Assembly: GCF_016904885.1 (NCBI RefSeq)
Contig: NZ_JADWYI010000001.1
Coordinates: 7,305,224 to 7,369,223, forward strand
Source: [Archangium] primigenium
Lineage (GTDB): Bacteria > Myxococcota > Myxococcia > Myxococcales > Myxococcaceae
Reading direction: 5' to 3'
Length of the DNA: 64,000 nt
The notes below the pieces were generated by a model. The model was not told the DNA's origin, ran no database searches, and saw only the letters and a program-made list of their open reading frames with translations. This document shows positions 3,395 through 61,828 of the stretch, in pieces; the stretch's first letter is position 1, and every line of letters starts with the position of its first letter. Made by a program: the position numbers and the translations under genes.

Positions 3395-5626
3395 ATGCCG
3401 CGCACCCTGTCCTTCCGTGGTTTCCTAACCCTGGGCCTCGTGGCCTGGACGGCCTCGGCGGCGCCCGCCGCTCCCGCCCCGGCCCTGCCCTCCGCCGAGG
3501 AGCGCCTGGCCCACCTGGCCCGGCTCTGGGGTCAGGTGAAGTACCGCCACCCGGCCCTGGCCTCCCGGGACATCGACTGGGACGCGGCGCTCGTGGCCGC
3601 CCTGCCCCAGGTGGAGGCCGCCGGGGACGCCGACGCCTACGCCCGCGCGGTGCAGGAGCTGTTGGAGACGCTCAAGGATCCCGCCACGCGCGTGCTCCGT
3701 CCGGAGGAGGCCGCTCCGGCCGAGGACACGGGAGCCTCTGGCGCGGGCCGCGAGCAGGCCGCGCGCTGGGCCGCCAAGGACGTGCTCCTGCTGGACCTGG
3801 GCGCGCCGTGGACCGAGACGCCCCGGAGCGAGCTGGCGCGCGCCAAGGCCGTGCTCGTGGACCTGCGGGCCCGGGGCCTGGACGCCCGCGCCCCCGAGCG
3901 CATGGCCCAGGCGCTCGGCGGCGTGCTGCCGCTGCTCCTGACCCAGCCCCTGCAGGTGCCCGGCTCGCGCTCGGTGTTCCACTCGGGCCACCGCGCGCAC
4001 ACCCTGCCCGCCGACGGCCGCTACACGAGCGCGCTGCTCACCACCTCGGGCGAGGTGGTGCCGCCCCAGGGACAGGGCAAGCCCCGGCCCATCCTCTTCG
4101 TGCTGGACGACCGCTCGCCCGTGGACGCGCGCGTGCTGACGATGAAGGCGCAGGGCCTGGCGCAGGTGCTCACCGAGGGCCGGCTGGATGACGGCGCGAG
4201 CGCCGAGACGACGCGGGTGGAGCTGGGCGCGGGGCTGGTGGCCAGCGTGCGCCTGAGCGAGCTGGGCGTGCCGCTGCGCGCCGACGCCGTGCTGCCCCGG
4301 CGCGCCCGGAGCGAGGGCAAGGACGACACGCTGCAGAAGGCGCTGGAGCTGGCGCGCAAGCCCGTGCGCAAGGTGAAGGTGCGCGAGGTGGAGCTGCCCC
4401 CGGGCCGCTGGCGCACGGACAACGCCTACCCGGACATGACGTACCCCACGCGCGAGTACCGCCTGCTCGCGCTCTTCCGGCTGTGGAACGCCATCGAGCT
4501 GTTCTACCCCTACAAGCACCTGATGGACGGCGACTGGGACGATGCCCTGCGCGCCGCCGTGCCGCGCTTCGCGGGCGCCCAGGACGCCGCGCAGTACGCG
4601 CTCGCCGTGGCCGAGCTGAGCACGCGCCTGCAGGACGGCCAGGTCACCCTCGCGGGACACCCGGAGCTGGAGCGGCGCGGCATCTCCGGCAGCCCCGCGC
4701 CCTTCGAGGTGCTGGAGCTGGAGGGCAAGCCGGTGGTGGTGCGCGTGGGCGACGCCGAGGCCGCCTCGGGCCTCAAGCGGGGCCAGATCGTCGAGACGCT
4801 CGACGGCCAGCCCCTCGCCCAGCGCCTGGAGGCCCTCAAGCCCTACGTCACGGCCTCGCAGGGCACGGCGCTGCGCCAGCGGCTGTGGACCCAGGCGCTG
4901 TCGGGCCCGGACGGCTCCCAGGCCACGGTGGGCGTGCGCGACGCGGACGGCCAGCTCAAGCAGGTGCGCTTCACCCGGGGCCCGCGCCGGGAGTCCCCCT
5001 CGGGCGAGGCGTGGCGGATGGGCCCGGACAACATGGGCTACGTGGACTTGACGCGGCTGCGGCCCACCGAGGTGGCCGCCCTGTTCGAGAAGATGAAGAA
5101 CACCCGGGCGCTGGTGCTCGACCTGCGCGGCGCCTCCCCGGGCACGCGCTGGGCCCTGACGCCCTTCCTCACCACGCGCAAGGCGCGCCACGGCGCGGTG
5201 CTCGAGCGCAACCTCGTGTCCGCGGACCACACGGGCCGCTACAAGTTCTCCGAGGAGCTGCCCCCTGCCGGCGCGGCGCCCTACCGCGGCCGCACCGTGC
5301 TGCTCATCGACGAGCGCACCCTCGGCGCGGCGGAGGACACGGGCCTGTTCCTGGAGGTCGCCAACGGCACCACGTTCGTCGGCGCGCCCAGCGCGGGCGC
5401 CACCGGCGGCGTGACGGACCTGGTGCTGCCCGGCGGCATCTCCCTGCGCTTCTCCGGCGAGGACGTGCGGCACGCGGACGGCCGGCAGTTGCAGCGCGTG
5501 GGCCTCAAGCCCCAGCTCTACGCGCGGCCCACGCTGGCGGGCCTGCGCGCGGGCAAGGACGAGGTCCTGGAGCAGGCCTACGGCTGGCTCAAGGGCAAGG
5601 GCGGCCCGGTGGGCGCGCCCCGCTAG
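3395..5626 (+). CDS. secreted S41-family (tail-specific/C-terminal processing) peptidase with PDZ-like region
   Basis: Signal peptide MPRTLSFRGFLTLGLVAWTASAAPAAPA. The C-terminal region (VLLIDERTLGAAEDTGLFLEVANGTTFVGAPSAGATGG) is typical of the S41 catalytic domain. A PDZ-like segment (GQIVETLDGQPL) is present. Confidence 0.6.
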   Translation: MPRTLSFRGFLTLGLVAWTASAAPAAPAPALPSAEERLAHLARLWGQVKYRHPALASRDIDWDAALVAALPQVEAAGDADAYARAVQELLETLKDPATRVLRPEEAAPAEDTGASGAGREQAARWAAKDVLLLDLGAPWTETPRSELARAKAVLVDLRARGLDARAPERMAQALGGVLPLLLTQPLQVPGSRSVFHSGHRAHTLPADGRYTSALLTTSGEVVPPQGQGKPRPILFVLDDRSPVDARVLTMKAQGLAQVLTEGRLDDGASAETTRVELGAGLVASVRLSELGVPLRADAVLPRRARSEGKDDTLQKALELARKPVRKVKVREVELPPGRWRTDNAYPDMTYPTREYRLLALFRLWNAIELFYPYKHLMDGDWDDALRAAVPRFAGAQDAAQYALAVAELSTRLQDGQVTLAGHPELERRGISGSPAPFEVLELEGKPVVVRVGDAEAASGLKRGQIVETLDGQPLAQRLEALKPYVTASQGTALRQRLWTQALSGPDGSQATVGVRDADGQLKQVRFTRGPRRESPSGEAWRMGPDNMGYVDLTRLRPTEVAALFEKMKNTRALVLDLRGASPGTRWALTPFLTTRKARHGAVLERNLVSADHTGRYKFSEELPPAGAAPYRGRTVLLIDERTLGAAEDTGLFLEVANGTTFVGAPSAGATGGVTDLVLPGGISLRFSGEDVRHADGRQLQRVGLKPQLYARPTLAGLRAGKDEVLEQAYGWLKGKGGPVGAPR

Positions 5627-7042
5627 CTAGTCGACCTTCTTCATCTCCTCCACGAAGGGACGGGCCTTGAGAAAGCCCGTCACCCGCGGCGCGCGCAGGC
5701 TCTCGCCCTTGGACGAGACGAACGCCACCGTGGGCAGGCCCTCCACCTCGAAGCGCTCCATCAGCGCGTCCAGGGCGTCGCTCGCCCGCGTGGCGTCCAC
5801 CTTCACGTTGAGGAAGCGCTCGGACTCGGAGATGACCTCCCCGGCCGGGTACGTCTCCCGGTCCAGCTCCTTGCAGGCCGCGCACCAGTCCGCGAAGAAG
5901 TCGATCATCACCGGCTTGCCCTCGCTCCGGGCGCGCACGAGCAACTGCTCGAAGGCCTCGGGGGAGAACTCCTGGCCGTGCGCGGGCAGCACCGCGCTCC
6001 AGGCGAACGTGGGCGCCCGGGCCGGCTCGGCCCACCCGAGCTTCACCCAGAGCTCGCCCGCGCCCTTCTCGTCCAGGGCCCCACCGCGCAGGACGAGCGC
6101 CAGCACCACCAGCGACACCCCGAAGGTCTTGAAGGTGAAGTCCCGGGGCCCCTCCTTGAAGGACAGGTGGATGGCGCCCAGCACCACGCCCAGGCCCGCG
6201 AGCCCCGCGGCCAGGACGGTGCCCGGCGTCTGGCCCACCTGCGCGAGCACGCCCTTGAGCGCCCCGCCCACCGCCGGGAACGCGTCCTTGAGGTAATTGA
6301 AGGCGAGCGCCACCAGGACGATGCCCAGCACGCTCTTCACCCACTCCATCCACACCCCGCTGCGCGGCAGGCGCACGGTGAAGACGCCAATGAGGAAGAA
6401 GGGCACGCCGATGCCCAGCGCGTAGACGAAGAGCAGCGCCGCGCCGAGCCCGGTGCTCTGCGACTTGGCCACGAAGGCGAGCAGCCCCGTGAGCACGGGC
6501 CCGGTGCACGGCGCCGCGAGGAAGCCGGACACGCTGCCCATGAGGAAGGCGCCCGTCACGCCCGAGCCACCCACCGTGGTGAGCCGCTCCTGCACGGCGC
6601 TCGGCAGCGCCAGCTCGAAGGCGCCGAACATGGAGCACGCCAGCGCCAGGAGGAACACCGCGAGCCCCGTCACCACCACGGGACTGCCCAAGAGCGAGCC
6701 GAAGGCCTGGCCCGTCTTGGCCGCCAGCACGCCCAGGGCGCTGAACACCACGCCCATGCCGACGATGTAGGCGCTCGTCAGCAGCAGCGCCTTGCCCCGG
6801 CCCTCCGCCTGCCGCGCGCCGAAGACGGACACGGTGATGGGGATGAGCGGATAGACGCACGGCGTCATCGCGGTGAGCAGGCCGCCGGCGAACACCACCG
6901 CCGCGCCCAGCGCCAGACTGCCCGACTCCAGGAAGCGCGCCGCGTCCAGCCCCGCGCTCGGCCCGGTGGGCACCAGCCAGGGAATGACCGCCACGCCCAG
7001 GGCCATCACCGCCGCGAGGCCCACCTTCTTCTTCGTGTCCAT
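5627..7042 (-). CDS. thiol:disulfide interchange protein, CcdA-like membrane domain fused to C-terminal thioredoxin (DsbD beta+gamma-like)
   Basis: Multiple TM segments with paired Cys (MTPCVYPLIPI, LAAPCTGPVL) and a C-terminal thioredoxin fold with a WCAAC motif (FFADWCAACKELD). Start taken at MDTKKK. Confidence 0.7.
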   Translation of the reverse strand: MDTKKKVGLAAVMALGVAVIPWLVPTGPSAGLDAARFLESGSLALGAAVVFAGGLLTAMTPCVYPLIPITVSVFGARQAEGRGKALLLTSAYIVGMGVVFSALGVLAAKTGQAFGSLLGSPVVVTGLAVFLLALACSMFGAFELALPSAVQERLTTVGGSGVTGAFLMGSVSGFLAAPCTGPVLTGLLAFVAKSQSTGLGAALLFVYALGIGVPFFLIGVFTVRLPRSGVWMEWVKSVLGIVLVALAFNYLKDAFPAVGGALKGVLAQVGQTPGTVLAAGLAGLGVVLGAIHLSFKEGPRDFTFKTFGVSLVVLALVLRGGALDEKGAGELWVKLGWAEPARAPTFAWSAVLPAHGQEFSPEAFEQLLVRARSEGKPVMIDFFADWCAACKELDRETYPAGEVISESERFLNVKVDATRASDALDALMERFEVEGLPTVAFVSSKGESLRAPRVTGFLKARPFVEEMKKVD

Positions 7043-10764: not shown

Positions 10765-11493
10765 TCAAGGACAGGAACGACCCCTGATGGCTGGAAAGCG
10801 CACATAGGCGAGACGGAGCGCGTCCAGATGCCGGGGGTTGTCCAGGTCCAGGGGCTCTTCCGTGAGGGGCACCACCCAGCCGCCCGAGGCCGTGCGCCGC
10901 GAGCGCGCGAGCAGTAGCCCGTCTCGCGAGAGGTCGGGAAACCCCAGGAGTTGGGCGGTGGCGGCCGACCAGTAGTTCACCCATCCCAGGCGGTACGGAA
11001 TCAAGGGGGAGTCGAATTCGTCCGGGGGCTTGAGCAGGGGAAGTCCAAGCGGCGGCGTATGGGGCGCGGAGAACGGATGCCAGACTTGCTCCGCGACCAT
11101 GAGCACCACGGCACTGGGGCTCATGTCTCCCCACCAGCCGCGAGCGGCTTCACCCACCCCCTCCAACGTGCCCACCGCCGCCCGAATGGCTTGTGATTCC
11201 AATGGCAATTTCCCATGGATGCTCAGCGCGGACTGACCCGCCGGAGAAACAGCGTCTCTTGGGATTCCGTAAACCATCACCGGGTAAGACTCGTCACCAT
11301 TGCAGACGAGCGGAAAATCGCCACGCGCGACCGCCTCGGAAAACCATTGCTCGCGCCGTGGCAATTTCAGGAGTTGTCCGTCCTCGGTAACATCCCAGAC
11401 CAGGTGAAGCCCAGGGAAGGAGTGCTCCATGGCCTGGACCACGGCCAGAGGGCGACCATCACCTCTTTCAAGGGGGGTCGTGAAAACAGTCAT
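10765..11493 (-). CDS. hypothetical protein (GC about 62%)
   Basis: Start at MTVFTTPLERGDG. No domain recognised. Lower GC than the core genome. Confidence 0.4.
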   Translation of the reverse strand: MTVFTTPLERGDGRPLAVVQAMEHSFPGLHLVWDVTEDGQLLKLPRREQWFSEAVARGDFPLVCNGDESYPVMVYGIPRDAVSPAGQSALSIHGKLPLESQAIRAAVGTLEGVGEAARGWWGDMSPSAVVLMVAEQVWHPFSAPHTPPLGLPLLKPPDEFDSPLIPYRLGWVNYWSAATAQLLGFPDLSRDGLLLARSRRTASGGWVVPLTEEPLDLDNPRHLDALRLAYVRFPAIRGRSCP

Positions 11494-11559
11494 GACCAAC
11501 TGGTCGCTCGCGCTTGGCATTTCAGCACCCTGTCACAACGACCTTCAAGGTGGCATCTT

Positions 11560-12841: not shown

Positions 12842-14026
12842 TCAGTAGTCGTAAAAGTAGAACGCCGCGATGTCCGCCTTGCCGTCACCCGTGAAATCCC
12901 CTGCCACCGGCCGACCTCTGTTCCAGTCCCATTGGCCCAGCCCACTCAACCACGGTCGGGAGAGTGAAAACGCACCTGTCCCCGTCGCGGTGAACAACCA
13001 GAGGCCCGTGTTCGCGTTGCCGTAGTTGTAGAACGCCGCGATGTCCGCCTTGCCATCGCCCGTGAAGTCACCGGCGACGGGAGAGGCGTTTTTCCATATC
13101 CAATTACCCGGGCCACTCAACCACGGCCGGGAGAGGGAAAACGCACCCGTCCCCGTCGCGGTGAACAACCAGAGGCCCGTGTTCGCGTTGCCATAGTCGT
13201 AGAACGCCGCGATGTCGGCCCTGCCATCGCCCGTGAAGTCACCGGCGACGGGAGAGGCGTTTTTCCATATCCAATTACCCGGGCCACTCAACCACGGCCG
13301 GGAGAGGGAAAACGTGCCCGTCTCCGTCTGAGTGAACAACCAGAGGCCCGTGTTCGCGTTGCCGTAGTCGTAGAATGCCGCGATGTCGGTCCTCCCATCG
13401 CCCGTGAAGTCGCCGGCGACCAGTTGGCACTGACTCCAGATCCAGTTCCCAGGGCCACTCGTCCAGACCAGGGACGCAGAGAAGGACCCTTTACCCGTCG
13501 CCCGGAAGATCCAGAGGCCCGTGTTCGCGTTGCCATAATCGTAGAACGCCGCGATGTCTTCCTTCCCATCACCCGTGAAATCACCAGAGACCAGCTTGGT
13601 TCTGTCCCACGCCCAACCGCCAGCACCGCTCTTCCAAAGCAGCGAAGGAGAGAAAGCGCCTGATTCTGTCGCGGTGAGCAGCCAGAGGCCTGTGTTCGCG
13701 TTGCCATAATCATAGAACGCCGCGATGTCGGCCTGACGATCGTTCGAGAAGAGGCCCGCCACCTCCTTGCTCGCGGCCCAGGCCCAATTTCCCGCACCAC
13801 TCCACCAAGCGGAGTAAGGAGAGGAGAAACCTGATCCCGTCGAAGGGAACATCCAGACTCGGGTATTGGCCGTCGCAGCGGAAACGTGTTCATGAGGAAC
13901 CGTCTCGACCGCGGCTGCTCCAGCAGGGCTTGGTAGGAAAAAAAGGCCTCCCAGAACAAACACCGAGAATGCCCTGCGCCCATGACTCCAGAGGAACAGC
14001 GGACTCGAATCACTCGTCCTGGCCAT
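12842..14026 (-). CDS. secreted FG-GAP/VCBS-like repeat beta-propeller protein
   Basis: Signal peptide (RRAFSVFVLGGLFFLPSPAGAAA) followed by at least six tandem 57-aa repeats, each with GDFTGDGKADIAAFYDYGNANTGLW. Start choice (MARTSDSS) is tentative. Confidence 0.6.
   Translation of the reverse strand: MARTSDSSPLFLWSHGRRAFSVFVLGGLFFLPSPAGAAAVETVPHEHVSAATANTRVWMFPSTGSGFSSPYSAWWSGAGNWAWAASKEVAGLFSNDRQADIAAFYDYGNANTGLWLLTATESGAFSPSLLWKSGAGGWAWDRTKLVSGDFTGDGKEDIAAFYDYGNANTGLWIFRATGKGSFSASLVWTSGPGNWIWSQCQLVAGDFTGDGRTDIAAFYDYGNANTGLWLFTQTETGTFSLSRPWLSGPGNWIWKNASPVAGDFTGDGRADIAAFYDYGNANTGLWLFTATGTGAFSLSRPWLSGPGNWIWKNASPVAGDFTGDGKADIAAFYNYGNANTGLWLFTATGTGAFSLSRPWLSGLGQWDWNRGRPVAGDFTGDGKADIAAFYFYDY
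12850..13900 (-). repeat. 171-bp tandem coding repeats inside the FG-GAP gene
   Basis: Adjacent units are near-identical at the DNA level. Units at about 13010-13180 and 13181-13350 share blocks of about 95 identical nt. Confidence 0.7.
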
Positions 14027-14179
14027 CACGAACCCTCCACGACAACAGTGCTCTCCTGTCCGTACCAACAGGAGGGAGCGCGCTGGACTTGCCTGCACAA
14101 CACCAAAACCCACACACTCCGTGTGGCCTGGCTATCTGGCAGGCAGGCAAGTTTCTGTCGTGTCACACCAGACGGTCGC

Positions 14180-21469: not shown

Positions 21470-21554
21470 GCCCAGGTGGTGGAATTGGTAGACACACTAG
21501 ATTCAGGGTCTAGCGCCTGCAAGGGCATGGAGGTTCGAGTCCTCTCCTGGGCAC
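21470..21554 (+). tRNA. tRNA-Leu (anticodon CAG), CCA not encoded
   Basis: Cloverleaf: acceptor GCCCAGG/CCTGGGC; D arm with GGAATTGGTAGAC; anticodon stem ACTAG/CTAGC... with loop TTCAGGG; long variable arm; T-arm GGAGGTTCGAGTCCTC. Confidence 0.85.
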
Positions 21555-45451: not shown

Positions 45452-45787
45452 ATGGACCCATTCGTGCGGCGCCTCGTGGAGAGGCTCCATGACCCAGCGC
45501 GTCCCCTGTCGCGCAACCGCCACTTCCACACGTTCGACACGCCCGAGGGCCGCCTGGCCCTCAAGGTGTCGAAGCGGCTCAAGAGCCTGCATCAGGACAT
45601 CCTCGCGTGTGTGCGCGAGGGGCGCCGGGCGCGGCTCTTCCGTCACCTCGAGCCCGGAGGCGAGCACCGGCTCGAGCTGCACTTCGAGCGCATCGCCGGC
45701 CGCCGCGTGTCCCACCTCAAGAAGGCCGAGCTGGAGCTGCTCGCCCAGCTGCCAGGCGTGAGCGAGGCCCTCGCGGGCGACCTCTGA
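45452..45787 (+). CDS. hypothetical protein
   Basis: 111-aa ORF with coding-like composition. No domain recognised. Confidence 0.4.
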   Translation: MDPFVRRLVERLHDPARPLSRNRHFHTFDTPEGRLALKVSKRLKSLHQDILACVREGRRARLFRHLEPGGEHRLELHFERIAGRRVSHLKKAELELLAQLPGVSEALAGDL

Positions 45788-45814
45788 AACCCGGCCGAGG
45801 CCCGGGCGCCGCGG

Positions 45815-46072
45815 CTACGGCGCCGAGGGCGTGGCGATGCGCGCGGGCTGGGGAATGCCGGGCATCAAGGGCGTGGGGTTGAGCGCGAGCACGAGCAGGC
45901 TGCGCAGCGCGTCCTTCAAGTCCTCGCCCACGCTGACCGAGCCCGCGGGCGCGTCCTGGAGCTCGGGCGGCACCTCGTGGCCCAGCACCACCACCGGCAG
46001 GCGGATGTCCCAAGCGAGGAAGTGCGCGAGCTTCACCGCCGCCTCGGTGGTGTCGAACAGGAGCGCCCCCAC
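45815..46072 (-). pseudogene. displaced 3' fragment (last 85 codons) of the response-regulator gene
   Basis: 85-aa ORF identical, bar a few residues, to the C-terminus of the 48767..50269 product. It lacks the receiver and DUF4388 domains. Confidence 0.7.
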
Positions 46073-46104
46073 GGCCCCGGAGCTGAAGGGCCGCCACAGG
46101 GGCC
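45815..46104. repeat. left 290-bp direct repeat (duplicate of the response-regulator gene 3' end)
   Basis: About 98.5% identical to 48767..49056. Both copies begin CTACGGCGCCGAGGGCGTGGCG and end GCCGCCACAGGGGCC. Confidence 0.85.
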
Positions 46105-46217
46105 ATAGCCGAAGAGTCTAGCGTCGGGGAAACAACGCCCTCTGACGCATGCCTCCAAATTCCAGCACTAAACTACACCCCAAACAAGCCCACATCCACT
46201 ACTCACCCAAGCAGTAA

Positions 46218-46778
46218 TCACCGCGCACGAGAAAGCACGCGAGCATCAACTGAGTAGAACTCCCATCCCTCGGCTGGACTTGGCCGTAATTTGGAGGGAA
46301 GCACATGCTCCGCCCTCGACAAATGAGAAGGCCCGTCCAGCAACATTAGAACAGGCCCTGGGCCAGCAGGGTTCAACTCCTGCGAAAGCAGCGCATTAAC
46401 CAAAACAACCAACTCCTCAGAGAAACCATCAAAGTCGCGGCCCGCGTCTCTACTCAAGCGACCCGCGATATCTCGATACTGCACACCAAGCTGAACGAAC
46501 AAGTCGAAGAACCACCTTCGATTTGTTCCCCCCAAATCCAACAGAGGGAGAGTTCGAAGGTCCATTACCCAGCGGGGCCGCAAATCACGCAACAGAGAAA
46601 CAAATGGCGCAGCTGGCATCGCAGCCATATCAATAAAACACAACAACTTAGGACTGGACATCAAAAACAACGGCAACTGCAACGGCTCTCGAAAAGAACG
46701 AGGCGAACTCGCCGATACGTCCAATCTCTCAGGAGAAACAATCAGCTTGAGGTGCGAAACGGCATTGCCCCTAGACAT
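46218..46778 (-). CDS. hypothetical protein encoded in the low-GC islet
   Basis: Overlaps or abuts the deaminase gene stop. No recognisable domain. Start is ambiguous (MSRGNAV or internal MSSPKLL). Confidence 0.4.
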   Translation of the reverse strand: MSRGNAVSHLKLIVSPERLDVSASSPRSFREPLQLPLFLMSSPKLLCFIDMAAMPAAPFVSLLRDLRPRWVMDLRTLPLLDLGGTNRRWFFDLFVQLGVQYRDIAGRLSRDAGRDFDGFSEELVVLVNALLSQELNPAGPGPVLMLLDGPSHLSRAEHVLPSKLRPSPAEGWEFYSVDARVLSRAR

Positions 46779-48417
46779 TCGAAGGCCCCGGTTCAAGCAG
46801 TTTTGCTTCCATTTCGGCGTGACTCAGTTTGCTAATATCCCAGGCGGATCCCCAATCAGGTTCTCCAATGCTCATCGCGCCATCGTCCTTGCTCTTAAAT
46901 TCCCGGTCTTTAAGGAAGGCACGCCAATAGAGCCGCGGCGCAACACCAGTGAAAGGAAGGAATGGGATTTTCTTCCCTTTTTCATGAGCCCGGTGACTAA
47001 TCGAATCACCATGAAGCTTTAGAGCGCGGCTTTTGGGGTAAGGCTCAATGTATTGAACCTCATCTACTCCAGCACTAACAATATGTCGGGCGCAGTAGTG
47101 ACAAGGATAAGTGGTTACAAACAGTCGACATCCCTGAGGAGAAGCACCCTGGCGCGCGGCACTCAGTAGGGCATCCATCTCGGCATGAACTGCACGACTA
47201 AACTCGATCAATTCTCCGACTGGGGAATTATCTCTAAGTTTGGCTTTAAGCGCGTCACGCTCTGCTGCGCTTAGCGGTTTTTCCTCGTGAATAACTTCGA
47301 GGACTTTCTCAATAATGTCGGCTTGCTCGCGAGTATTACTGCAGTACTTCTCGGGACGAAATGCGCAGCGATTATCGTTCGACGGTGCAATTTCGTCGGA
47401 ATCCTGAGCATACACGCCTCCCCCCGCCCTAGGGACTTCATTTGCTCCTGTCGAAACGATATTACCTGTCGCATCAATCAGGGCGGCCCCAACTTGACGA
47501 GACAAGCACGCGCTACGCATTTGGGCTCCATATGCCGCATGCATAGCCGTCTCGCTTGAAGTTGGTCGCTCAATACTCGATTGCGTAATTATACGCACCA
47601 ATCGAACCAGATGTTCATCTACTCGCCAGTTCGGATTATCTTTAAGCTGCCCCCCATCCTCTAGTTGACGCTCCTCACTATTATCAACAAAGAAGTCCGC
47701 TAGATGGAAGGCGTCCGAGACGCGCTGGCCGTGCTTCTTCTTTTTTGGGTCCTTCTCTTTAGCATCACGTTCCATGAACTTTTTGATGTGGACTTGACCC
47801 GCATCAGTAAATTTCGTCTTTTGCAAACGTTCCAGACGAATGTCTTCTTGACACACAACCCCAACAAGCGCGAATGCGTTCCGATACAAGCTTCGCAGCA
47901 GATGTGCTTCCGCCGGATGCCGTATAGCGTCGATGATGTAAGCGCGAGGTTTTCCATCTGGAAGAACAGCTCCAACGCCAGGGTTTTCTATACGTTGCAT
48001 TCGGGCCCTAGCCAGTCGGATTCTTTCGACCATCGAACGAGCGACAGCAGTAGCATCACTGCTGCGCATCTCATCTCCCCAATCCTGCAGATTGATAGCG
48101 TGCTTTAAATCTGTCTTTTTGGGCTCTTCTGTTAGTTTGCCGCTCCGGCGTGCCCAATCAACAATTACTTCTCGTGCCTTTAGCATCTCAACTTCGTAAC
48201 CCTTTCGGCTCGATAGTAGGTTTTGGAGTGCCTCGGCGATAAACGAGGTTCCTGAGCCGACATGGCCGACGACAGCGAAGACAAGTTCGTTGGACGCGTG
48301 CTCTTTGAACAGCTCTTGAGCGCCGGTACCCGGGCGCCTTCTACTTTGGAGGGACACAACGGTTTCGGCAGCGGACATGACGAAATCGTACCAGATTAAG
48401 ATGCTGGTTTCGGGCAC
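46771..48417 (-). CDS. kinase-like N-domain + CMP/dCMP-type zinc deaminase C-domain protein (dCTP-deaminase antiphage defense family candidate)
   Basis: N-terminal P-loop-like motif VFAVVGHVGSGTSFIAEAL. C-terminal zinc-deaminase motifs HAEMDAL...PCHYCARHIV. 548 aa. Low GC. Confidence 0.6.
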   Translation of the reverse strand: MPETSILIWYDFVMSAAETVVSLQSRRRPGTGAQELFKEHASNELVFAVVGHVGSGTSFIAEALQNLLSSRKGYEVEMLKAREVIVDWARRSGKLTEEPKKTDLKHAINLQDWGDEMRSSDATAVARSMVERIRLARARMQRIENPGVGAVLPDGKPRAYIIDAIRHPAEAHLLRSLYRNAFALVGVVCQEDIRLERLQKTKFTDAGQVHIKKFMERDAKEKDPKKKKHGQRVSDAFHLADFFVDNSEERQLEDGGQLKDNPNWRVDEHLVRLVRIITQSSIERPTSSETAMHAAYGAQMRSACLSRQVGAALIDATGNIVSTGANEVPRAGGGVYAQDSDEIAPSNDNRCAFRPEKYCSNTREQADIIEKVLEVIHEEKPLSAAERDALKAKLRDNSPVGELIEFSRAVHAEMDALLSAARQGASPQGCRLFVTTYPCHYCARHIVSAGVDEVQYIEPYPKSRALKLHGDSISHRAHEKGKKIPFLPFTGVAPRLYWRAFLKDREFKSKDDGAMSIGEPDWGSAWDISKLSHAEMEAKLLEPGPSNV

Positions 48418-48766
48418 ATCGGGGAAGTGCGCATTGAAGCAACGAACTCAACGCTGTCCCGTTCCGAACTCTCCATCAACCAGCGCGATGTAGGAAAAGG
48501 GGATTTGCGAACACACATAAGGCCACAGAACGAGCGAACGAAGTCCCCGAGCGAGACCTAATACTCGAAGAGGTTTCGGGGCTGCATTCTTGATGCCATG
48601 ACCACTCACGCTCTGATTTACGTAAGTCCCCGTAACTACTGTGGATGGAACGTACGCATTGAGCAATTTAGCGTTTTAAGGGGTTAAGCTTCGGGCGGCA
48701 GGCGGACGGATCAGGACAAAGAGCCGGACTCCTACAAATAGATTGAGTCCTATGTGTTCCCATAAA

Positions 48767-49056
48767 CTACGGCGCCGAGGGCGTGGCGATGCGCGCGGGC
48801 TGGGGAATGCCGGGCATCAGGGGCGTGGGGTTGAGCGCGAGCACGAGCAGGCTGCGCAGCGCGTCCTTCAAGTCCTCGCCCACGCTGACCGAGCCCGCGG
48901 GCGCGTCCTGGAGCTCGGGCGGCACCTCGTGGCCCAGCACCACCACCGGCAGGCGGATGTCCCAGGCGAGGAAGTGCGCGAGCTTCACCGCCGCCTCGGT
49001 GGTGTCGAACAGGAGCGCTCCCACCGCCCCGGAGCTGAAGGGCCGCCACAGGGGCC
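48767..49056. repeat. right 290-bp direct repeat (3' end of the intact response-regulator gene)
   Basis: See the left repeat. Confidence 0.85.
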
Positions 49057-50269
49057 GGGCCGCCTCGGCGGGCGGCAGCACGCAGAAGTCCAGGTGCAGC
49101 AGCTCGTTGAGCTCCATGCGGCCGAGCGTGCCGAAGCCGCTGCGCACCGCGGGCGGCTCGGCGGCCACGGCGGCGAGCTCCGCGAGCTGGGAGAGCACCC
49201 GCCGGGCCACGGCCGGGCCGCTGCCACACACGAAGAGCTTCGCGGTGGCCTCGCGCGACACGCCCCGGCCCCGGAGGATGCGGCCGCGCAGCGCGTGCAG
49301 CTCGGCGGGCGCGAGCAGGGGCGCGCTGGTGCCGGCGTCCGCGTCGCCCTCGGCCATGCGCGCCACGCCCTTCTGCAAGAGCGCGTGCAGCACGCCCACC
49401 ACTTCCAGATCCGTGGCGGGCGCCAGGTCCAACACCTCGTTCACGGCCCGGGGCTGGCGCAACAGCTCCACCACCTGCGCCGTCACCGGGTGCTGGTCGC
49501 CCGCCAGGTCCATGTCCGGCGCGAGCACCAGGCGCGTGTGGCGCGGCGGCAGGCCGGGCAGCAGCCGGTTCACCTCGTCCGCCTGGCGCATGGCCTCCAG
49601 CAGCGCGCTGTCCATGGCCCGCTGGATGCGCGGCTTGCCGGAGGTATTGCCGGGCGCGAAGGTGAAGGTGCCCTCGGTCCACACGAGCAGCCGGAACAGG
49701 GCCTTCTCCCCTTCCGCGCGGCCCACCCGGGCGTTGAAGGGGCGACCCTCCACCACGACGATCTCCCCGCGCTCGTTGCCCCGCTCCAGCGTCAGCTTGC
49801 CGCTGCGCTTGTTCATCCCGAGGATCTGCATCAGGTCCGGGATGCTCAGCTGGCTCAGCGAGCCCTCGATCTCCTGGGCCTCGCTCTTGAGATCCTTGGC
49901 CGCGTCGCTGCGGCGGAAGACGTGCTCGATGCGCGAGAGCACCTCGTCCAGGTTGAAGGGCTTGCGCAGGAAGCCATCGCGCAGGCCGCGCATCTTGTCG
50001 GCCTCGAGCTGGCTGGTGGACACCACCACGGGGATGTCGTCCGTGCGCGGGTTGGTGTGCAGGATGTTGATGAAGGTGCGCGCGTCCAGCATCCGGCACG
50101 CCTCGTCGAAGAGGATGAGGTCGGGGTGGCGCAGCACGGCGACCTCCAGCGCGCGCGAGCCGTCCGGCGCGTAGTGCACCTGGTAGCCGCGGGTGCGCAG
50201 GGCGCGCGACAGCGGACGGACGGACTCGAGGTCGGGGTCGGCGATGAGGATTTTTCGGACCTGGGCCAT
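48767..50269 (-). CDS. response regulator with receiver domain + DUF4388 (PatA-like) domain + C-terminal uncharacterised domain
   Basis: Receiver (KILIADPDLESV...DLILFDE...KPF). DUF4388-like segment (LSQLSIPDLMQILGMNKRSGKLTLERGNERGEIVVVEGRPFNARVG). Confidence 0.7.
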   Translation of the reverse strand: MAQVRKILIADPDLESVRPLSRALRTRGYQVHYAPDGSRALEVAVLRHPDLILFDEACRMLDARTFINILHTNPRTDDIPVVVSTSQLEADKMRGLRDGFLRKPFNLDEVLSRIEHVFRRSDAAKDLKSEAQEIEGSLSQLSIPDLMQILGMNKRSGKLTLERGNERGEIVVVEGRPFNARVGRAEGEKALFRLLVWTEGTFTFAPGNTSGKPRIQRAMDSALLEAMRQADEVNRLLPGLPPRHTRLVLAPDMDLAGDQHPVTAQVVELLRQPRAVNEVLDLAPATDLEVVGVLHALLQKGVARMAEGDADAGTSAPLLAPAELHALRGRILRGRGVSREATAKLFVCGSGPAVARRVLSQLAELAAVAAEPPAVRSGFGTLGRMELNELLHLDFCVLPPAEAARPLWRPFSSGAVGALLFDTTEAAVKLAHFLAWDIRLPVVVLGHEVPPELQDAPAGSVSVGEDLKDALRSLLVLALNPTPLMPGIPQPARIATPSAP

Positions 50270-61050: not shown

Positions 61051-61653
61051 TCAGTTGCCGAACAGCTCGAGCGTCTGAGGCGGCGTGGCCTCGGTGGGCT
61101 CGGCCCGGTGGCACTTGCGGCAGCGCGCCTCGTAGGCGCCGGCCGCGCCCACCACCACGCGCTCGCCGCGATCCACCAGCCGCTGCGAGCGATTGGCGGG
61201 ATTCCCACACACGACGCAGATGGCCAGTTGCTTCGTCACGTACTCGGCGATCGCCAGCAGCTGCGGCATCGGCTCGAAGGGACGGCCCTGATAGTCCTGA
61301 TCCAGCCCGGCCAGGATGACGCGCAGGCCCCTGTGCGCCAGTGCCTCACACACCGCCACCACCTCGCTGCCGAAGAACTGCACCTCGTCGATGCCCACCA
61401 CCTGCGTGTGGGGAGAGAGATGACGGAAAATTTCTTCAGCCCGTTCGATGGGAATGGAGGTCAATTTCAACTGGGAATGGCTGACCACCTGGGTCTCGTC
61501 GTAGCGGTTGTCGATCCTCGGCTTGAAGACCTGGACCGCTTGCTTGCCATAGACGGCGCGCTTGACGCGACGGATGAGTTCTTCCGTTTTTCCGGAGAAC
61601 ATCGACCCGCAGATGACCTCTATCCACCCGATGTCTTTGGGGAATTGGTGCAC
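61051..61653 (-). CDS. tdk: thymidine kinase
   Basis: P-loop GSMFSGKTEELIRR and C-terminal zinc ribbon CVVCG...CRKCH. The start is uncertain. The long upstream frame is unlikely to be translated. Confidence 0.7.
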   Translation of the reverse strand: MHQFPKDIGWIEVICGSMFSGKTEELIRRVKRAVYGKQAVQVFKPRIDNRYDETQVVSHSQLKLTSIPIERAEEIFRHLSPHTQVVGIDEVQFFGSEVVAVCEALAHRGLRVILAGLDQDYQGRPFEPMPQLLAIAEYVTKQLAICVVCGNPANRSQRLVDRGERVVVGAAGAYEARCRKCHRAEPTEATPPQTLELFGN

Positions 61654-61828
61654 GCGAGGAACTCGATCGGGGTGGGGGTTGGAGCGCGGGTCAGCTCTGA
61701 CACGCCCCTCCTGGCACGTCAACTTCCCGCCCCCCGCGACCCGAGGCCCCACACGCGCCGTCCGCCCCCGGCCCCGTGGCAAGCATCTTGAATGACGTTG
61801 CTTCGGGTTCAAACCGGGGAGGTCTTGG

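Follow-up and report, generated by a model that had tools for sequence, protein, structure and literature searches.

We describe a two-gene locus of the myxobacterium [Archangium] primigenium in which a gene for a deoxycytidine triphosphate (dCTP) deaminase of the AvcD/DcdV anti-phage family is followed directly by a gene for a small protein belonging to an unnamed family. The locus lies in a 64,000-nucleotide stretch of contig NZ_JADWYI010000001.1 (RefSeq assembly GCF_016904885.1, forward-strand positions 7,305,224 to 7,369,223), which we call the window and whose own numbering is used throughout. In the deaminase clade to which this locus belongs the small protein, referred to here as the partner, is obligatory, being present at every evaluable locus examined. 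We consider it likely, at a probability of roughly 70%, that the two genes form a horizontally acquired anti-phage cassette made up of an AvcD/DcdV-type deaminase and a coupled partner with a regulatory or sensing role.

The deaminase and its family

The open reading frame (ORF) at 46771-48417 comprises 548 codons on the minus strand, the plus-strand translation being riddled with stops. Its 548-residue form begins at a GTG at 48417, and the RefSeq protein 'anti-phage dCTP deaminase [Archangium primigenium]', which is 100% identical to it, has 535 residues, a length that places the start at Met14 (ATG 48378) rather than at the GTG. A first-pass annotation of this DNA, made from the letters and the ORF list, had proposed a dCTP-deaminase-like antiphage gene with a kinase-like N-terminal and a deaminase C-terminal domain, and the profile searches bear this out. 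The NCBIfam equivalog NF041025 'anti-phage dCTP deaminase' aligned over its entire length (model positions 1-437 of 437) with 437.4 bits against a cut-off of 400 (E=5.8e-131), the PADLOC dCTPase model PDLC02373 matched with E=1.2e-152, and RefSeq gives the identical protein the same name. The two motifs quoted in that annotation, the P-loop-like VVGHVGSGTSFIAEAL and HAEMDAL...PCHYCARHIV, are both present in the 548-codon ORF. The Pfam comparison that it had called for recovered dCMP_cyt_deam_1 (E=1.3e-15), and on the side of the kinase-like N-terminal domain gave only a weak match to AAA_18. The predicted structure of the deaminase shows a two-domain fold with a predicted local distance difference test score (pLDDT) of 90.7.

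The P-loop is kept as G38-x-x-G41-S42-G43-T44-[ST]45 across 122 aligned homologues, with G38, G41 and G43 invariant. It had been remarked from the sequence that this Walker-A-like motif lacks its canonical lysine. The observation proved correct and extends well beyond the window, for 120 of the 122 homologues have no lysine in that column, so that its absence characterises the clade and does not point to decay. Where the window deaminase, about 32-37% identical to the gammaproteobacterial type, reads GHVGSGTS, the two aligned AvcD-type proteins from gammaproteobacteria have GAVGSG[VI]KS. In relatives, changes at the key positions of either domain (Table 1) are detrimental. The E384A substitution in Vibrio cholerae DcdV, equivalent to a change of Glu400, led to loss of activity; cysteine-to-alanine changes at the equivalent zinc positions abolished function in the V. 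cholerae and Escherichia coli AW1.7 enzymes; and point mutants of the P-loop motif (S52K in DcdV, G29A/C30A in AW1.7) were inactive.

Judged by its sequence, the deaminase truly belongs to the known AvcD/DcdV anti-phage dCTP-deaminase family. It has more than 4,500 homologues, and taken by itself it is ordinary and already named in RefSeq. With the AvcD/DcdV-AvcI systems of V. cholerae VSP-1, V. parahaemolyticus, Proteus mirabilis and enterotoxigenic E. coli it has in common the family, the two-domain architecture, the HAE and PCxxC motifs and presumably the chemistry, which is the conversion of dCTP/dCMP to dUTP/dUMP. DcdV/AvcD deaminates both dCTP and dCMP, needs both of its domains, and is inhibited post-translationally by the small RNA AvcI/DifV (about 152-174 nucleotides); when a phage shuts off transcription the labile AvcI is lost and AvcD becomes active. 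The same kinase-like N-domain and zinc deaminase C-domain are found in the E. coli AW1.7 and U09 deaminases, the type that DefenseFinder and PADLOC list as the single-gene system 'dCTPdeaminase'. When cloned with their native promoters these two genes defend against phage, both domains being required, and phage T7 evades the defence through gp5.7, an inhibitor of host transcription (Tal et al. preprint). The distribution of this type is sporadic and driven by horizontal transfer (Tal et al. preprint). All family enzymes assayed are gammaproteobacterial, and infection-triggered deamination of dCTP and dCMP, together with protection from phage, would be expected of the A. primigenium enzyme by analogy with its assayed relatives from E. 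coli and Vibrio.

A coupled partner gene directly downstream

The longest ORF of the partner starts at a TTG at 46796 and encodes 192 amino acids; the likely start is ATG 46778, which yields a protein of 186 amino acids and lies over the TAG of the deaminase in the sequence ATGTCTAG. A start/stop overlap of the form RTGNNTAG is kept in 8 of 10 loci, and this conservation points to translational coupling of the partner to the deaminase. The 186-residue protein has no match in Pfam, NCBIfam, PADLOC or PHROGs. DUF488 (PF04343), considered as a candidate family, was rejected, as it matched neither the window protein nor the family consensus and appeared weakly in 6 of 53 members (best E 0.0026).

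In a first search, against 5.8 billion proteins, the partner had only two homologues, both encoded directly after close relatives of the deaminase, and tblastn found intact copies that had not been called as genes in two further myxobacterial genomes (L003, 7634-8212, and L004, 7607-8194). Annotation of the family in public genomes is probably incomplete. The partner is present at five further genomic or contig loci as well, and a homologue stands directly 3' of the deaminase in 10 of 10 related genomic or contig loci. A profile search of genome contigs for additional relatives recovered only the already known Myxococcus locus. In a phage collection the partner was absent, and only four full-length AvcD-type deaminases were found there.

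The pairing was also followed in a metagenomic sample of 80 loci with deaminases 43-55% identical to that of the window, in which all ORFs were scored with a hidden Markov model (HMM) of the partner family. A locus was counted as evaluable if it had at least 450 nucleotides of sequence downstream of the deaminase (n=75). The partner domain lies immediately 3', on the same strand, in 75 of the 75 evaluable loci (E 1e-12 to 1e-55), and it was detected in 4 of the 5 truncated ones too. By contrast, with all filters off the partner HMM found nothing in any of six distant deaminase loci (30-37% identity; Photobacterium, Klebsiella, E. coli, Vibrio, Mycobacterium and Rhodococcus), and those of E. 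coli, Klebsiella and Photobacterium carry an annotated ORF of 56-61 amino acids 5' of the deaminase, at the AvcI position. The two architectures, with a 3' partner or with an element at the AvcI position, are mutually exclusive in this sample of 85 evaluable clade loci and 6 distant loci. In AvcD-type loci a small ORF or small RNA stands 5' of the deaminase and there is no 3' partner; the window clade has a coupled 3' partner, and no conserved element could be detected 5' of its deaminases.

The partner domain in other defence systems

When 1.84 billion representative proteins were searched exhaustively with a profile, the partner family came to 421 clusters at 50% identity, 197 of them at E<=1e-10. 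Most members are 165-205 amino acids long, and many others have 620-1,140 amino acids with the partner domain at the N-terminus. The long forms carry TIR_2 and match the PADLOC model Aga_TIR-PNTD1-PNTD2, the TIR-APAZ protein of SPARTA, with E values down to 7e-138; in one member (P0172) the partner-TIR-APAZ chain runs on into a short prokaryotic Argonaute (pAgo; E=3.8e-173). The partner domain is in these cases an N-terminal extension of about 180 residues on some of the TIR-APAZ proteins of SPARTA (Aga_TIR-PNTD1-PNTD2 with pAgo_I in PADLOC). The characterised SPARTA proteins are not known to have an N-terminal domain of this type.

Deaminase and SPARTA components can also be neighbours. On the Rhizobium gallicum plasmid pRGM101a, at 263376-268399 (L013, 4971-9994), a deaminase that is 54% identical to that of the window is followed by a partner-TIR-APAZ fusion and then by a short pAgo. 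The annotation splits the deaminase of this locus into two overlapping ORFs (4971-5957 and 5932-6588), and the gene may be frameshifted or a pseudogene. A partner match is present at 79 of the metagenomic loci; the domain is stand-alone in 60 of them, part of a partner-TIR-APAZ fusion in 17 (Table 1) and in another form in 2. A pAgo adjoins or is fused to the TIR-APAZ protein in 15 of the 17 fusion loci, and in L027 and L045 the partner-TIR-APAZ ORF exceeds 1,000 amino acids and extends into pAgo. SPARTA is defined by TIR-APAZ and short pAgo together, a combination found in L013, L017-L019 and others; the window has no TIR, APAZ or pAgo gene and carries the partner domain in its stand-alone form only. 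Whereas the E. coli AW1.7 and U09 deaminases work as single genes, in the window clade the genetic unit has two genes, or three where SPARTA is included.

Other effectors accompany the domain as well. One family member adjoins an Aga-type TIR gene (L008). In three further cases the DNA retrieved contains no deaminase: the partner domain adjoins a SoFic-like gene (L009, 5001-5991), is fused to GNAT and PIN_3 (P0202, 878 amino acids), or is fused to DUF2188 (P0163, 387 amino acids). Since the domain recurs with SPARTA, SoFic and GNAT-PIN, it behaves as a defence module that is independent of any particular effector.

We propose that the partner is a regulatory or sensing subunit, which would stand in for AvcI, the antitoxin RNA of systems of the Vibrio type, and would either restrain the deaminase or report infection. 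Once unleashed, the deaminase would convert deoxycytidine to deoxyuridine nucleotides, so that phage replication would be starved of dCTP. Fused to SPARTA TIR-APAZ in some proteins and adjoining SoFic in another case, the partner domain may serve as a control module whatever the effector. We infer the role of regulator or sensor, in preference to that of a substrate or a passenger, because the clade deaminase never occurs without the domain and because the domain occurs with other effectors where there is no deaminase. Its N-terminal fusion to TIR-APAZ is more in keeping with sensing or regulation than with the part of a classical antitoxin.

The leader and the search for an AvcI-like RNA

It could be argued that the locus is instead a type III toxin-antitoxin system of the AvcID kind, with an antitoxin small RNA in the 388-nucleotide leader and a downstream ORF that is separate or accessory. 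AvcI/DifV is encoded immediately 5' of its deaminase, in the same orientation and co-transcribed with it. The leader occupies the corresponding position, is part of the imported low-GC islet described below, and contains a small ORF of 72 amino acids, as AvcD-type loci do. An Rfam scan of 45500-49300 found no known RNA, the fold of the leader was no better than that of shuffled sequences (z=-0.31), an alignment of five leaders showed no conservation, and an all-against-all blastn comparison of 69 leaders (that of the window and 68 others) revealed no common element, with matches only between near-identical loci. A scan of the islet for promoters and terminators gave counts at chance level, with none usefully placed and no sigma-70-like promoter. 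As evidence on an AvcI-like RNA in the leader these results are negative but weak: AvcI homologues have no sequence similarity to one another, so that missing conservation among leaders is not proof of absence. A further objection comes from the other side of the deaminase. The 3' partner, translationally coupled, is found in 85 of 85 evaluable clade loci and in none of the 6 distant ones, and where an AvcID system consists of an RNA and a deaminase with no protein partner, the window locus possesses such a protein. We regard the RNA-based alternative as unlikely.

N-terminal motifs of the partner and a possible link to the sliding clamp

Two short motifs stand in the N-terminus of the partner, a region predicted to be disordered (pLDDT <50). 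The first, [HYF]L[RK]LV in the family, occurs in 129 of 164 family members and in 39 of 67 proteins of an independent set; this peptide might be a second docking signal or a degradation signal. The second, which reads QLPLF in the window protein, is of the form QxxLF. In its strict form it is present in 96 of the 164 family members, fragments truncated at the N-terminus included, and in 43 of the 67 distinct metagenomic partners that make up the independent set, compared with 1.8% of shuffled controls. Its glutamine, Q34, is at least 90% conserved and ranks among the approximately 15 most conserved positions of the family despite a linker of variable length, and the consensus of the family HMM at this site is QLSLF. 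Both motifs are retained in the TIR-APAZ fusions.

The binding motif for the bacterial beta sliding clamp is Q-L-x-L-F, with QLSLF as its full consensus and Q1, L4 and F5 as its most conserved positions (PMC4549789). Such motifs usually lie in unstructured regions and typically recruit enzymes to replication forks (PMC4549789). The N-terminus of the partner conforms to the sequence definition of a beta-clamp-binding motif, and binding to DnaN is putative. What it shares with clamp-binding proteins such as polymerases, Hda, MutS and transposases is the pentapeptide with Q1, L4 and F5 in an unstructured terminus. The motif of the partner is internal, about 34 residues in from the N-terminus and away from the very end of the protein, and about 40% of the family is without a strict motif of this type. 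A literature search, outside which most subscription journals lay, found no paper tying TIR-APAZ proteins or dCTP deaminases to the clamp. Sensing by the partner might occur by docking on the beta sliding clamp through the disordered QLPLF motif. More broadly, and tentatively, the domain of about 180 residues may be an immune control module that docks on the host beta clamp through QLxLF and makes the release of varied effectors (dCTP deaminase, SPARTA TIR-APAZ/pAgo, SoFic and GNAT-PIN) depend on the state of the replisome.

The same clamp-like peptide, kept in the TIR-APAZ fusions, could be taken to mean that the partner is a localisation adaptor, neither inhibitor nor sensor, that tethers the deaminase or SPARTA to the clamp at forks, where motifs of this type typically bring enzymes. 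We find this improbable, as the dCTP pool is diffusible and local tethering would bring no obvious gain; the domain also accompanies SoFic and GNAT-PIN, effectors with no evident link to forks, and the clamp binding on which an adaptor would depend is itself putative.

The islet, its flanking repeat and its mobility

The location of the deaminase in a low-GC islet, also claimed in the first-pass annotation, is clear: the segment 46105-48766 has 51.8% GC, compared with 71.3% in the rest of the window. The islet holds the two-gene cassette and the leader only, and is bracketed by a 290-nucleotide direct repeat with 99% identity (4 mismatches) and sharp junctions. One copy is the 3' end of an intact response-regulator gene, and the other, an orphan, runs into native downstream DNA. 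Over the 84 residues that they share the two copies translate identically, and the fourth difference affects a third codon position, so that all four mismatches are silent, which suggests that the orphan copy derives from a functional allele of the donor genome. Its low GC content and the flanking repeat mark the cassette as horizontally acquired. The geometry of the repeat would fit a Campbell-type single crossover of a circle of about 2.95 kb, and there is no integrase within the islet.

The same cassette occurs at different chromosomal sites in other myxobacteria, and flanking repeats, tried as a general insertion signature, were not found at the other cassette loci. In Pyxidicoccus parkwayensis (L006, 6405-7861) the cassette adjoins a tyrosine integrase gene and an HTH_17 (excisionase-like) gene, and at another locus (L007, 2498-3745) it adjoins a DDE transposase gene; these are possible vehicles of its mobility. 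The neighbours in relatives include KAP NTPase, SLFN/AlbA (SLFN_AlbA_2), HEPN, NERD-kinase, integrase and pAgo genes, and in the window itself no defence genes adjoin the cassette. Klebsiella ColE1-type non-mobilizable plasmids of about 4.6 kb (L015, H8-H17) carry an AvcD-type deaminase and a small 5' ORF as most of their cargo, which fits addiction-like behaviour.

Such small plasmids, the minimal size of the mobile islet and the toxin-antitoxin behaviour shown by AvcID could all be cited for the notion that the pair is mainly an addiction module, stabilising mobile DNA by post-segregational killing and having no real role against phage in A. primigenium. This seems to us quite improbable, since those family members that have been tested protect against phage, relatives in the clade lie in defence islands and beside SPARTA, and a chromosomal islet of 2.7 kb without mobility genes offers little to stabilise. 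A housekeeping pyrimidine enzyme, that is a ComEB/Dcd-like dCMP deaminase fused to a nucleotide kinase, is very improbable even though the nearest solved structures of the deaminase domain are housekeeping and viral dCMP deaminases, for the ComEB model TIGR02571 gives 50.3 bits against a cut-off of 219 where the anti-phage equivalog passes, a kinase-like domain is present in addition and the reductase domain of RibD is absent, and the gene lies on foreign low-GC DNA that was inserted with a target duplication, varies in site among relatives and is coupled to a domain that TIR-APAZ proteins also carry. ComEB, T4 Cd, human DCTD, PBCV-1 bi-DCD and human CDADC1 differ from the window deaminase in having no such kinase-like N-domain and no partner gene and in failing the family cut-off.

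Table 1. Coordinates of the cassette, its signature motifs and its flanks in the window, with the metagenomic loci that encode partner fusions
Feature	Position	Strand	Remarks
Anti-phage dCTP deaminase gene	46771..48378	-	NF041025, PADLOC dCTPase, identical RefSeq protein
N-terminal nucleotide-kinase-like (P-loop) domain	47575..48297	-	aa ~28-268
P-loop-like motif GHVGSGTS (VVGHVGSGTSFIAEAL)	48244..48267	-	without canonical Lys
C-terminal zinc CMP/dCMP deaminase domain	46954..47559	-	aa ~274-475
Catalytic H-A-E (His398, Glu400)	47179..47187	-	invariant in 122/122 homologues
Zinc-binding P-C-H-Y-C (Cys426, Cys429)	47092..47106	-	P425, C426, C429 invariant in 122/122
Partner gene, 186-aa protein, unnamed family	46218..46778	-	directly 3' of deaminase
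Start/stop overlap ATGTCTAG, partner ATG over deaminase TAG	46771..46778	-	8 nt
Partner motif 1, HLKLI (family [HYF]L[RK]LV, about residue 9)	46740..46754	-	partner aa 9-13
Partner motif 2, QLPLF	46665..46679	-	partner aa 34-38, about 24 residues after motif 1
Low-GC 5' leader/promoter region, expected position of an AvcI-like RNA	48379..48766	-	388 nt
Horizontally acquired islet, two-gene cassette and leader only	46105..48766	.	2,662 bp
Direct repeat copy A, orphan second copy of the final 290 nt of the DUF4388 response-regulator gene	45815..46104	.	
Direct repeat copy B, inside the intact response-regulator gene 48767-50269 (-), at its 3' end	48767..49056	.	
Deaminase with partner-TIR-APAZ fusion, 17 metagenomic loci			L017-L019, L021, L025, L027, L031, L032, L035, L038, L039, L043, L045, L052, L058, L088, L095

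Other features of the window

A second patch of lower GC content (61-66%), at 10765-11520 and 12842-14113 on the minus strand, encodes a DUF5953 protein (E=3.5e-91), an FG-GAP-repeat protein and ORFs with no family match. A third (about 65%) contains a thymidine kinase gene at 61051-61812 on the minus strand (PF00265, E=9e-53), flanked by ORFs with no family match. The sole tRNA gene of the window, for tRNA-Leu (CAG), is at 21470-21554 on the plus strand, away from the islet.

Significance

Deaminase-based depletion of dCTP is catalogued as a single-gene system (DefenseFinder, PADLOC) or as an RNA-regulated one (AvcID), and here an environmentally widespread clade pairs it with a coupled protein that may regulate dCTP-deaminase immunity or act as its sensor. 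Annotation pipelines leave this partner 'hypothetical' or do not call it at all, as in 2 of the first 4 relatives. A genetic link of nucleotide depletion with Argonaute/TIR immunity was not found reported in the literature search mentioned above. The putative clamp motif in turn offers a testable hypothesis, namely that the replication clamp is a docking site for defence effectors or is read out by them. If the partner domain does act as a control module, a large branch of the 'single-gene' dCTP deaminases would consist of two-component systems under protein control, with about a fifth of that branch hard-wired to Argonaute, pairing the depletion of nucleotides with that of NAD+.

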